Positions 215 through 3,714 are shown, numbered from the stretch's first letter. The stretch is 4,459 nt of DNA from a virus (IMGVR_UViG_2778261420_000010), one strand, 5' to 3'. The notes: generated from the letters alone by a model not told the origin. A program made the numbers and translations.

Positions 215-769
215 ATGAACGAAAATTATATTGCATATGAGACACTTGTAGCAAACCGTGCTGCTGCTGAGTGGGCTTGTTGGGCAATGATTGCATCTTG
301 GGTGAGTGCTGGAGCTACTATTGTTACTTTGTTTTTGGCGTTCAAGGCATTATTTACGTGGCGGGAACAAGAGAAAACAAAAGTAAAAATAGATTTTAGG
401 AATGCATTAAAGAAATTAAAGACAGCTCTATTATTTATGCCTGTCAATATTGACCCCGAGCAACTCAATGATGAACGAGAGCAAGTTATTGCGAAATGGC
501 TATTTAAAGATGTAGATCTTATTAGTCAGCAAATTGAGTTGGGAGAAGAGAATGTTAAAAGATTTGATGAGCTTTTGAGTATTTTTGATTGTTGCCAATC
601 TTCATGGTTTGCGACAGAGCACTTATTTGATAATACTGAGTTAGAAAAAGTTTGGCATGAGTTCGAGTCTAACTTTAATAAATATATAAATGGTGGTGAG
701 AGTAAGGATTTACTTATGAAAATGCTTGATAAGCTCATCTCTTCTAGATTTGTATTTGAGTCAAGATAA
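215..769 (+). CDS. Hypothetical membrane-anchored protein, 184 aa, family not recognised; AT-rich moron and candidate accessory/defence gene
   Basis: Seen in sequence: ATG at 215 preceded by GTGAGGT (204-210) as Shine-Dalgarno with about 5 nt spacing; uninterrupted ORF to TAA at 767-769. The gene is markedly AT-rich and A/T-ending codons dominate, unlike the GC-rich genes downstream. The translation has a hydrophobic stretch at about residues 21-47 (ACWAMIASWVSAGATIVTLFLAFKALF) followed by a K/R-rich segment (WREQEKTKVKIDFRNALKKLK), suggesting N-out/C-in topology, then a charged D/E/K-rich domain of about 135 aa with no catalytic motif I can recognise. Confidence 0.75.
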   Translation: MNENYIAYETLVANRAAAEWACWAMIASWVSAGATIVTLFLAFKALFTWREQEKTKVKIDFRNALKKLKTALLFMPVNIDPEQLNDEREQVIAKWLFKDVDLISQQIELGEENVKRFDELLSIFDCCQSSWFATEHLFDNTELEKVWHEFESNFNKYINGGESKDLLMKMLDKLISSRFVFESR

Positions 770-819: not shown

Positions 820-1170
820 ATGCCCCCTAGAATCCCAAAAGCCTGCCGCGTTCGCGGCTGCCGCAATACCACGACTGACCCGTCAGGCTACTGCGAAAGC
901 CACAAAAGCGAAGGCTGGAAACAATACAAGCCAGGACAATCCCGTCACCAGCGCGGCTATGGTTCGAAGTGGGATGTTATCCGCGCGCGTGTGCTGAAGC
1001 GTGATAAAGGTTTATGTCAGTTATGTCTGCGTGCTGGTGTGGTGCGTGAGGCGAAAACCGTTGACCACATCATTCCTAAAGCGCATGGCGGCTCTGATGC
1101 CGACAGTAATCTGCAGAGCCTGTGCTGGCCGTGTCATAAGGCGAAGACGGCCCGTGAACGGCTGAAGTAA
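820..1170 (+). CDS. HNH endonuclease, phage packaging-associated type (HK97 gp74-like)
   Basis: Seen in sequence: the translation contains N-terminal Cys pairs (CRVRGC...YCESH), the HNH core DHIIPKAHGG...N, and a second zinc-knuckle CWPCHKAKT. Established knowledge: HNH proteins encoded immediately next to the terminase genes are a recurrent component of HK97-like packaging machines. The start ATG at 820 has no obvious Shine-Dalgarno (upstream is pure A/T), so translation initiation is unusual, but the N-terminus MPPRIPKACR is typical for this family. Confidence 0.88.
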   Translation: MPPRIPKACRVRGCRNTTTDPSGYCESHKSEGWKQYKPGQSRHQRGYGSKWDVIRARVLKRDKGLCQLCLRAGVVREAKTVDHIIPKAHGGSDADSNLQSLCWPCHKAKTARERLK

Positions 1171-1196
1171 GAATCAGTTCCCACTGACAGAGGGGA

Positions 1197-1256
1197 GGGG
1201 CGGGTCAAATCCCTGTGACCTGACGTCTTCCGGACTGCCCGCCCCATCGTTTTTTT
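1197..1256 (+). terminator. GC-rich inverted repeat plus T-run in the HNH/TerS intergenic region; intrinsic-terminator-like and/or part of a cos/packaging recognition region
   Basis: Seen in sequence: GGGGCGGG (1197-1204) and its exact reverse complement CCCGCCCC (1238-1245), separated by 33 nt, followed 4 nt later by a run of seven T (1250-1256). The loop is larger than in a classic rho-independent terminator, so the assignment is tentative. Confidence 0.35.
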
Positions 1257-1286
1257 ATACCCGCGAAAAATGAAATTTAACCAGGA

Positions 1287-1790
1287 GTGCCGCATATGGC
1301 TGGAACGGCGGGGCGTTCCGGGCGTCGCCCTAAGCCAACGGCGCGCAAGGAGCTGGCCGGAAACCCCGGCAAGCGAGCCCTGAACAAAGATGAACCTGTT
1401 TTTACGCCCATCAAAGGTGTTGAGCCACCGGAGTGGTTCGCTGAAGAAGAGTTTCCTCTCGCCACGATCATGTGGCAACTGACAACCAAAGAACTCTGCG
1501 GTCAGGGCCTGCTGTGCGTGACTGACCTCGCAGTGCTTGAGCGGTGGTGCGTGGCCTATGAGTTCTGGCGACGTGCCGTGAAAAATATTGCCAGACAGGG
1601 CAACACCATCACCGGTGCAATGGGCGGCATGGTCAAAAATCCGGAGCTGACCGCCAAAAAAGAACAGGAGTCCGAGATGAGCAGTACGGGGGCAATGCTC
1701 GGACTCGACCCCAGCAGCCGCCAGCGTCTGATTGGCCTGGCGGGGAAGAAGAAAGCCACTAACCCGTTTCTGAAAATTATCGAGTCATGA
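1287..1790 (+). CDS. terS: Phage terminase small subunit, P27 family
   Basis: Seen in sequence: the translation carries the N-terminal basic tract and GNPGKRAL motif typical of P27-family small terminases, and sits immediately upstream of and overlapping the large subunit. The ORF track starts at GTG 1287, but ATG at 1296 is the more likely start because AGGAG (1283-1287) lies about 8 nt upstream of it. Stop is TGA at 1788-1790. Confidence 0.88.
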
Positions 1791-3520
1791 GCCGGAAATC
1801 TTACCCCAACGTAAATGCTGCCAATCAGTATGCCCGGGATGTCGTGCGCGGAAAGATTGTGGCCTGCCAGTTTGTGATTCAGGCCTGCCAGCGCCATCTT
1901 GATGACCTGATGGCGGAAAAAAGTAAGTCGTTTCGTTACCGCTTCGACAAGGATCTGGCTGAACGGGCCGCCAAATTTATTCAGCTGTTGCCGCACACCA
2001 AGGGTGAGTGGGCATTTAAACGGATGCCCATCACGCTGGAGCCGTGGCAGCTCTTTGTGGTCTGCTGCGCGTTTGGCTGGGTCAATAAAGGCTCCCGGCT
2101 GCGCCGCTTCCGGGAGGTGTATACCGAAATCCCCCGTAAGAACGGCAAATCGGCAATCTCTGCCGGTGTTGCCCTGTATTGTTTTGCCTGTGATAACGAG
2201 TTTGGCGCGGAAGTGTATTCCGGTGCCACGACAGAGAAACAGGCGTGGGAAGTCTTTCGCCTGGCGCGACTGATGTGTAAACGCACACCCATGCTGACGG
2301 AAGCGTTCGGGATTGAGGTTAACGCCTCAAACATGAACCGTCCGGAGGATGGGGCGCGGTTTGAACCGCTGATTGGTAACCCCGGTGATGGTTCATCACC
2401 CCACTGTGCGGTGGTGGATGAATATCACGAGCACGCCACAGATGCGCTTTACACCACGATGCTTACCGGGATGGGGGCGCGACGTCAGCCACTGATGTGG
2501 GCCATTACCACCGCCGGGTACAACATTGAGGGGCCGTGCTACGACAAACGGCGGGAAGTCATCGAGATGCTCAACGGCTCGGTGCCCAACGATGAACTGT
2601 TCGGGATCATCTATACCGTTGACGAAGGCGACGACTGGACCGACCCGCAGGTACTTGAAAAAGCTAACCCGAATATCGGTGTGTCGGTTTATCGCGAGTT
2701 TTTGTTAAGCCAGCAGCAACGTGCGAAAAATAACGCCCGTCTGGCAAACGTCTTTAAAACAAAACACCTCAATATCTGGGTGTCGGCGCGTTCGGCGTAT
2801 TTCAACCTGGTGAGCTGGCAGAGCTGCGAGGATAAATCACTGACTCTTGAGCAGTTCGAGGGGCAGCCGTGCATTCTGGCCTTTGACCTGGCGCGTAAGC
2901 TGGATATGAACAGCATGGCGCGACTTTATACCCGCGAGATTGACGGTAAAACGCATTACTACAGTGTGGCCCCGCGTTTCTGGGTACCGTATGACACGGT
3001 GTACAGCGTCGAGAAAAATGAAGATCGCCGGACAGCCGAACGCTTTCAGAAATGGGTGGAAATGGGCGTTCTGACCGTTACCGATGGTGCGGAGGTGGAT
3101 TATCGCTACATCCTCGAGGAGGCCAAAGCGGCGAACAAAATCAGCCCGGTCAGTGAGTCACCCATCGACCCCTTCGGGGCGACCGGGTTGTCACATGACC
3201 TTGCTGATGAAGACCTGAACCCCGTCACTATCATTCAGAACTACACCAACATGTCCGACCCGATGAAAGAGCTGGAAGCGGCAATTGAATCGGGGCGCTT
3301 TCATCATGACGGCAATCCAATCATGACCTGGTGTATCGGCAACGTGGTCGGCAAAACCATTCCGGGTAACGATGATGTGGTGAAACCCGTCAAAGAGCAG
3401 GCGGAAAACAAAATCGATGGTGCAGTTGCGCTGATTATGGCGGTTGGCAGAGCCATGCTGTACGAGAAAGAAGACACGCTGTCTGACCACATTGAGTCCT
3501 ATGGGATCCGCTCGCTTTAA
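1787..3520 (+). CDS. terL: Phage terminase large subunit (ATPase plus nuclease)
   Basis: Seen in sequence: 577-aa ORF whose ATG (1787-1789) overlaps the TerS stop in an ATGA arrangement, implying translational coupling. It has a P-loop-like PRKNGKS motif, a Walker-B-like hydrophobic-DE stretch ([10 protein letters not shown]), and a C-terminal region with conserved acidic residues ([11 protein letters not shown]; [15 protein letters not shown]) consistent with the RNaseH-like nuclease domain. Stop is TAA at 3518-3520. Confidence 0.93.
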
Positions 3521-3531
3521 CTGAGGTAATT

Positions 3532-3714
3532 ATGATCATGCTGATTCTCGCGCCTCTGGTGGGCGTGCTGGGGGCGCTTTTGCTGGCGTATGGTGCCTGG
3601 CTGATTTATCCCCCGGCGGGGTTTGTTGTTGCCGGGGCGTTGTGCCTGTTCTGGTCGTGGCTGGTGGCGCGATATCTCGACCGTACACAGTCGTCTGTCG
3701 GCGGAGGTAAATAG
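3532..3714 (+). CDS. Small hydrophobic protein, 60 aa, two predicted transmembrane helices, function unknown
   Basis: Seen in sequence: ATG at 3532 with GAGG (3523-3526) about 5 nt upstream. It exactly fills the gap between the TerL stop and the portal start. Codon usage (CTG, GCG, GTG) matches the neighbouring genes. Two hydrophobic segments ([23 protein letters not shown] and [19 protein letters not shown]). GC-rich frames can give hydrophobic ORFs by chance, hence moderate confidence. Confidence 0.55.

Follow-up and report, generated by a model that had tools for sequence, protein, structure and literature searches.

A probable cos site with a 10-nt cohesive end between the HNH endonuclease and small terminase genes of an enterobacterial prophage

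The gap between the HNH endonuclease gene and the small terminase (TerS) gene in the prophage DNA studied here is, with a probability of roughly 0.87, the cos site of a temperate phage of the SfV/SfI/SfII/SfIV/ST64B/phiP27 group, set in an HK97-style HNH-TerS-TerL-portal module. All positions refer to the window, by which we mean the whole stretch of 4,459 nucleotides that was analysed (IMGVR_UViG_2778261420_000010). A first-pass annotation of this DNA had proposed a cos or terminase-recognition region between the two genes, and this proposal was borne out: the 10-nt end that has been mapped in phage SfI is present unchanged. The cos identity of the gap is already known for this phage group. 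Two modest new leads emerged from the comparison with relatives, namely a conserved box upstream of the cohesive end and a match between the edge of that end and the nick site of phage HNH enzymes. The features of the window are listed in Table 1.

Table 1. Features of the window that bear on the cos site and its neighbourhood. Offsets with a plus sign count from the top-strand nick.
Feature	Position	Strand	Basis or remark
AT-rich gene, function unknown	215-769		PHROG 6169; 184 aa; 35% G+C
HNH endonuclease gene	820-1170	+	Pfam PF01844, 2.8e-16; PHROG 144
HNH-TerS gap	1171-1295		125 nt
Conserved upstream cos box GGGGAGGGGCGGGTCAAATCCCTG (G-run + GGTCAAATC)	1192-1215	+	39 aligned cos regions
Spacer, box core to nick position, 21 nt	1212-1232	.	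Length conserved, sequence variable
GAC|TG (consensus GAC|CG), left edge of the cohesive end	1233-1237	-	GAC nearly invariant before the 10-nt slot
Cohesive end (cosN overhang) TGCCCGCCCC, 10 nt	1236-1245	+	SfI run-off; phiP27 cos-site; HK97 slot
T7 tract	1250-1256	+	+5..+11 after the top-strand nick
Predicted TerS-binding site (cosB-like), core CGCGAAAAAT at 1262-1271 (+17..+26)	1259-1273	+	Position-conserved; HK97 analogy
TerS ribosome-binding site AGGAG	1283-1287	+	8 nt before ATG 1296
TerS gene (P27 / Terminase_4 family)	1296-1790	+	PF05119, 2.2e-21
TerL gene (ATPase + nuclease domains)	1787-3520	+	PF03354 1.7e-26; PF20441 5.3e-34
Membrane-protein gene, 60 aa	3532-3714		
Portal gene, start only	from 3714		Pfam; open to window end

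The window is a segment of an enterobacterial prophage. Pfam matches confirm the order HNH, TerS, TerL and portal around the gap, which is the arrangement of an HK97-type cos region, and agree with the first-pass annotation on the two genes that flank it. The HNH protein is of the terminase-associated kind found at the right end of phage genomes, and the frames of HNH, TerS and TerL are intact. We place the start of TerS at ATG 1296, as in the SfII annotation; a mechanical list of open reading frames begins at GTG 1287. The packaging genes are 96-97% identical to those of SfII, SfIV, SfI and SfV and 85% identical to those of Salmonella phage ST64B, and of 5426 complete E. coli genomes, 840 contain at least 80% of the window. 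Overlapping stop and start codons (ATGA, 1787-1790) join TerS to TerL and suggest translational coupling. The stop of the membrane-protein gene also overlaps the portal start, at 3714.

Upstream of the HNH gene the window parts company with the Sf phages and ST64B, in that it carries a different AT-rich gene and the end of an IS3 element. The IS3-family end occupies positions 1-77, with the transposase start ATGACAAAAACA reading out of the window on the minus strand; E. coli matches to this stretch are annotated 'IS3-like element IS3 family transposase', and related prophages align to the window only from position 70-79 on. Between the IS3 end and the HNH gene lies the AT-rich gene (215-769), which is without a Pfam match and is moron-like, with a G+C content of 35% against 52% over the whole window. 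The SfII and SfV matches stop short of this gene. The gene occurs as well in Salmonella phage 118970_sal3, which aligns with the window from position 70.

The cohesive end can be placed to the base by comparison with SfI. Run-off sequencing from both ends of SfI virion DNA, compared with the prophage, showed that 10 nt, 5'-TGCCCGCCCC-3', are missing, and the authors concluded that SfI is packaged by a cos mechanism and not by headful (PMC3636060). The same ten bases form the end of the SfI record and recur in the window without a change. The cos sequences of SfI, SfV, SfII, SfIV and ST64B are essentially the same as that of the window, with an identical 10-nt end and the same HNH and P27-type TerS genes; the papers on SfIV and SfII also state that the cos site is the same. 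In numbers, 107 of the 116 nucleotides at 1171-1286 match both SfII and SfV, and 72 of 75 at the right end of SfI match the window, which differs from the Sf phages and ST64B by a few substitutions just past the HNH stop codon (1171-1190). Public records disagree on where the genome begins: expressed as window positions, the SfI record starts at 1246, those of SfV and SfIV at 1229, that of SfII at 1171 and that of ST64B at 1281, while a note in the SfII record puts cos at 1229-1295. Base-exact mapping of the ends is available for SfI only. A pac or headful signal was ruled out, as SfI uses cos and SfIV has been described as yielding precise restriction fragments.

Alignment with characterised cos regions of more distant phages led to the same 10-nt slot. 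The phiP27 record contains a 'cos-site' misc_feature of 10 nt, CGCCCGCCCC, which aligns to window 1236-1245. PhiP27 also shares with the window the upstream box GGGGAGGGGCGGGTCAAATCCCTG and the downstream sequence ACCCGCGAAAT, whereas the first base of its overhang is C rather than T and the spacer sequence differs; over the gap as a whole, 86 of 120 alignment columns match (~72%). The HK97 record ends in ...GAC CGCCGCCAAA and restarts with GTTTG, which puts a 10-nt 3' overhang in the slot of window 1236-1245; 10-nt 3' overhangs are established for this phage (PMC11331095). HK97 further resembles the window in its gene order, in a G-run and ATCAAATC box at an equal distance upstream, in the GAC directly before the 10-nt overhang and in a CCCG plus A/T tract ~15-30 nt inside the left end. 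It differs from the window in the sequence of the overhang, CGCCGCCAAA, and in the position of its HNH gene, which lies ~320 nt upstream of the genome end and not tightly beside the box.

The SfI run-off reads left a gap and not an overlap, which we take to imply recessed 5' ends on both sides. From these recessed ends and the analogy to HK97 we infer that the overhang is 3'-protruding; we found no explicit statement to this effect for the SfV/SfI group. With this polarity, the top strand would be nicked between 1245 and 1246.

A cos site of known identity may nevertheless be inactive in its present host. The IS3 end at 1-77 adjoins phage genes and only 4.5 kb of the element is visible, so that this copy could belong to a defective prophage and the region could be a dead relic without current function. 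We consider this unlikely, given that plaque-forming phages have the same cos core base for base, that HNH, TerS and TerL have uninterrupted frames and portal stays open as far as it can be seen, and that E. coli genomes carry the module very commonly and in well-conserved form. Loss of function would in any case concern the activity of the site and not its identity.

The cos site of phage lambda follows a similar plan, with a termination element upstream, staggered nicks, and a TerS-binding region downstream beside the TerS gene. Lambda departs from the window in that its overhang is 5' and 12 nt long, its TerS is of the Nu1 type, with R sites and an IHF site, its TerL is of the gpA type, and an HNH gene is absent. 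A cos site of the lambda type is excluded by the 10-nt end, the Terminase_4 TerS and the PF03354/PF20441 TerL.

The first-pass annotation had singled out an inverted repeat in the gap, and its description of the sequence is exact. GGGGCGGG at 1197-1204 and CCCGCCCC at 1238-1245 are 100% complementary over 8 bp, with 33 nt between them, and are followed by the T7 run, by A-rich tracts (A5 at 1266-1270 and GAAATTTAA) and by the AGGAG of the ribosome-binding site, all as described. On its own, however, such a repeat is unremarkable and often expected by chance: when 1171-1286 was shuffled 5000 times with dinucleotides preserved, 8.8% of the shuffles contained a perfect inverted repeat that was 8 bp or longer and had a loop no longer than 60 nt, and the 4.46-kb window contains five such repeats. 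One perfect inverted repeat of 9 bp, longer than that of the gap, lies inside the TerS coding sequence (GAGTCCGAG/CTCGGACTC at 1668-1676 and 1698-1706). The two arms of the gap repeat fall into two separate elements of the cos site, the left arm within the upstream box at 1192-1215 and the right arm within the cohesive end, of whose 10 bases it accounts for 8. Chance complementarity between the G-run of the box and the C-rich overhang in this phage group is all that creates the repeat.

We considered whether the repeat itself works in the DNA, as a two-fold symmetric site or a cruciform through which terminase or the HNH protein recognises cos. Both arms do lie inside functional cos elements, a shorter pair, GGTC/GACC, is invariant across relatives, and about one third of the representative cos regions have 6-8 nt of complementarity between G-box and overhang. 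Yet in 25 of 40 representatives outside the SfV group this complementarity amounts to 4 nt or less, which is just GGTC against GACC, and true box/overhang pairs are not more complementary than mismatched pairs taken from different phages (mean 5.09 vs 4.66). In some relatives (L018, L144 and L027) the overhang has a G-run in place of the C-run, which makes the repeat a direct and not an inverted one. In the alignment of 39 relatives, the proposed helix is paired in 53.3% of cells against 53.1% in shuffles, a value reached by 246 of 500 shuffles and equalled by slid controls. RNAalifold retains only four invariant pairs (GGTC/GACC, -3 kcal/mol), and no covariation-supported fold was found in the 39 aligned relatives. 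A working role for the repeat thus finds its arms in separate elements, its complementarity missing in most relatives and its covariation absent, and we judge it improbable. The short pair is an observation in its own right: GGTC in the box (1204-1207) and GACC at the nick (1233-1236; GACT in the window) are invariant or nearly so in 39 of 39 aligned regions, ~30 bp apart, in alignment columns 29-32 and 60-63.

The other reading proposed for the repeat, a Rho-independent terminator that stops moron and HNH transcripts before the packaging genes, instead of or besides a cos site, is not supported either. An all-GC 8-bp stem followed by T7 does resemble a terminator, and the minimum-free-energy fold of the gap (-36.8 kcal/mol) uses this stem. 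That fold is not beyond what shuffles produce (z = -1.36; 17 of 200 are equally stable), and the features of an intrinsic terminator are missing. The loop measures 33 nt instead of the expected 3-8 nt or so; ATCG parts the end of the stem (1245) from the T7 run, leaving the U-tract 4 nt off where 0-2 nt would be expected; and none of the six terminator-like sites that a consensus scan picks out in the window is in the gap. The stem is no better kept in the 39 relatives than in shuffles, as the pairing values given above indicate. The T-run corresponds to an AnTn tract in relatives, which have AATTTTT, AAATTTTT or AATTTTTT at its position; the tract of HK97 is found at +24..+30 instead. Late transcription in lambdoid phages can reach the head genes only by passing through cos, and this counts against a terminator in the gap. 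In SfII, the authors marked no terminator at cos; the putative one that they annotated corresponds to window 3540-3589. We regard a terminator in the gap as very improbable, and judging from the sequences of the relatives the T7 run would be an A/T tract of the TerS-side half of the cos site and not the tail of a terminator. The window does contain a hairpin of 12 pairs at 3550-3577, picked up by the consensus scan and followed by TTTTG, inside the gene for the 60-aa membrane protein; its counterpart in SfII is annotated 'putative rho-independent terminator', though it lies within coding sequence between TerL and portal.

Searches for structured RNA in the gap (Rfam, 0 hits at E <= 1) and for tRNA or tmRNA genes (ARAGORN, 0 genes) were negative. 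An open reading frame on the minus strand across the gap (1134-1478) was dropped as a coding candidate, being broken up in phiP27 and varying in extent in other relatives.

To compare cos regions across phages, we joined the ends of the sequence records and lined up 13 phage cos regions. Viral contigs were then scanned for the stretch surrounding the left arm, and the hits were reduced to 44 non-redundant cos regions; the alignment comprises 39 sequences. One feature that recurs in this comparison is the upstream box, with the consensus a.gGGGggGGGGGGTCAAATCTCTg; neither TCAAATC nor the G's beside it vary among the 39 aligned cos regions, HK97, phiP27 and phi467 included. The spacer between the box and the nick position measures 18-23 nt, mostly 20-21 nt, among the 44 representatives, and RNAalifold found no conserved pairing within it; hairpins seen by eye in the spacers of L041, L018 and phi467 were rejected, as RNAalifold keeps only the GGTC/GACC pairs. 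At loci with the full box, the HNH gene ends 10-100 nt upstream and TerL lies 0.5-0.9 kb downstream, and the HNH proteins are 29-81% identical to that of the window, phi467 or HK97. Look-alike matches that lack the G-run have neither an HNH nor a TerL gene nearby. The idea that the box is the remnant of a tRNA T-arm was dropped; true T-arms (GGGTTCAAATCC) are only false positives of the pattern scan. Three unrelated viral contigs (L044, L058 and L083) carry GGGG.GGGGTCAAATCC followed by a complementary C-run and a T-run, forming terminator-like hairpins with TCAAAT in the loop; these, too, are false positives of the pattern scan and have no HNH or terminase context.

As a check that was blind to the motif, 80 loci from Firmicutes and Proteobacteria genomes were retrieved by HNH protein similarity alone (using a 5-sequence alignment), and 76 of these were usable. 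Exact TCAAATC is rare among the 76 loci, with 6 matches of which ~4 are genuine. Among these loci, 20 have a degenerate form of the arrangement, GGG-N1-4-[CAG]AAA-N18-28-GACCG, after the HNH gene; the pattern turns up in one locus on the reverse strand and in none upstream. Once duplicates were removed, 40 of the 74 HNH loci had GACCG on the forward strand and 16 had its reverse complement.

A role for the box can be proposed by analogy. It was rejected as the TerS site because it lies outside the mapped TerS site of HK97 (+15..+29) and is common to different TerS lineages. During packaging the box would arrive at the motor after the rest of cos, a position like that of lambda cosQ, which is needed for termination; it may act likewise at that stage or offer the HNH or TerL nuclease a place to dock. 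There is some resemblance to cosQ: the right end of lambda, CGGGTCCTTTCC (NC_001416 48,472-48,483; L260 93-104), agrees with CGGGTCAAATCC of the window (1201-1212) at 9 of 12 bases. Lambda cosQ, which we take to span 48,473-48,479, and the box have CGGGTC...TCC in common, and the distance from the cosQ-like stretch to the first nick is 19 nt in lambda and 23 nt in the window. We treat this likeness in sequence as a lead only. No description of the box, of the general cos layout or of the match to an HNH nick site was found in the literature on HNH proteins, cos motifs and phiP27, a search that key older papers fall outside, and the box sequence itself matched only unrelated primers in the literature.

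The box and GAC stand at fixed spacing in 39-44 divergent cos regions, with the box 20-22 nt ahead of a conserved GAC|YG nick position in divergent HNH-TerS-TerL modules, HK97 among them. Most phages continue after GAC with CG, the window with TG; the second box scan demanded GACCG and so inflates the conservation of this motif, an effect from which the first scan and the reference phages are free. This edge of the cohesive end coincides with a known enzyme specificity. Xu and Gupta reported that phage HNH proteins encoded beside cos and terminase genes are strand-specific nickases, with the core site CG|GT (AC^CG on the other strand) and ACYG among its variants; the HNH proteins of phage gamma and GVE2 both nick CG|GT, HK97 gp74 was reported to be non-specific, and no link was drawn from the nick sites to cos cleavage (PMC3592412). 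The sites of the nickases (phage gamma, GVE2 and phi105: CG|GT = AC^CG) agree exactly with the conserved GAC|CG in both sequence and cut position. The window, with GAC|TG, departs from the AC^CG core in a way that fits the reported ACYG variant. The HNH protein of the window has 38% identity to HK97 gp74 over 65 aa, and its best relative of solved structure is the GVE2 HNH endonuclease (5h0m, E 7.8e-13).

An HNH nick at 1235/1236 is proposed because the GAC|CG edge matches CG|GT in sequence and cut position and GAC|TG fits ACYG. By analogy with the specificity of the GVE2 relative, the HNH protein would nick the bottom strand between 1235 and 1236 (5'-CA|GTC-3' on the minus strand), while the TerL nuclease would cut the top strand 10 nt downstream, after 1245. 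In HK97, the HNH protein gp74 stimulates cos cleavage. The HK97 authors considered that one strand is perhaps cut by TerL and the other by gp74 (PMC11331095). Putting these elements together, we suggest that HNH-dependent cos sites in Proteobacteria and Firmicutes alike might contain the box as a deeply conserved element that has gone undescribed, with GAC|CG as the HNH nick site, HNH cutting the bottom strand and TerL the top strand, and the box serving as a counterpart of cosQ or as an HNH-TerL docking site. We hold this composite proposal tentatively, at distinctly less than even odds.

The half of the cos site on the TerS side is less uniform and varies by TerS lineage, Klebsiella prophages switching right after the overhang. 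In HK97, the minimal TerS site is a 15-bp segment at +15..+29, CTAACCCGATTTTTT, which consists of CCCG and an A-tract, and TerS reads one G and the shape of the A-tract as DNA passes through its ring (PMC11331095). In the window, CGCGAAAAAT is the predicted TerS site, at an offset like that in HK97. A ring-shaped TerS would bind the A/T tracts and CGCGAAAAAT, ~1.5 helical turns inside the left genome end, and so mark the site. The related motif CGCGAA[AT][AT]T is found at +16/+17 in 12 of the 44 representatives, which come from divergent phages, and another clade has CGCGTAAAAA at +7. Pseudomonas prophages retrieved by their HNH proteins have ACACCCGCGAAAT at the position of the predicted TerS site, and their ATCGTTTTCTTACACCCGCGAAAT nearly equals the sequence of the window.

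The TerS proteins of the relatives are all Terminase_4, and 665 TerS homologues are named 'phage terminase small subunit P27 family' in their sources. HK97 gp1 matches no Pfam family, and a BLAST comparison of the TerS of the window with gp1 gave no similarity. An AlphaFold (AF2) model of the window TerS has a mean pLDDT of 74.5, with a core above 87. By TM-score, the model comes closest to 8pop_A, the small terminase of HK97 (TMt 0.56, prob 0.72), but the E value of 1.3 is not significant; the likeness in fold is suggestive only, and the predicted TerS site is an analogy.

The annotation of the gap can be taken as largely settled, with the gap as the probable cos site and predicted genome ends at 1235/1246, so that the linear map of the prophage and its packaging type can be given without experiment. 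The comparison also gives a base-level template for HNH-assisted cos sites, consisting of the box, 20-22 nt, GAC|N10| and a TerS-specific element, which could help to locate the genome termini of prophages and of phage contigs from metagenomes. A division of labour with HNH on the bottom strand and TerL on the top strand would explain the 10-nt 3' overhang, a question still posed in the HK97 literature. Which nuclease cuts which strand, as asked there (PMC11331095), becomes a simple question of strand-specific nicking.

Finally, loci of a Klebsiella type (L017, L055 and ~80 more) carry the same HNH-side half of the cos site, comprising the box, the spacer and GACCGCCGCCT, and this half is followed by one or the other of two unrelated modules on the TerS side, the first identical to the ATACCCGCGAAAAATGAAATTTAACCAGGAG of the window and the second phi467/LV-2017-like. 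This switch of modules suggests a recombination junction at the cohesive end or immediately past it.
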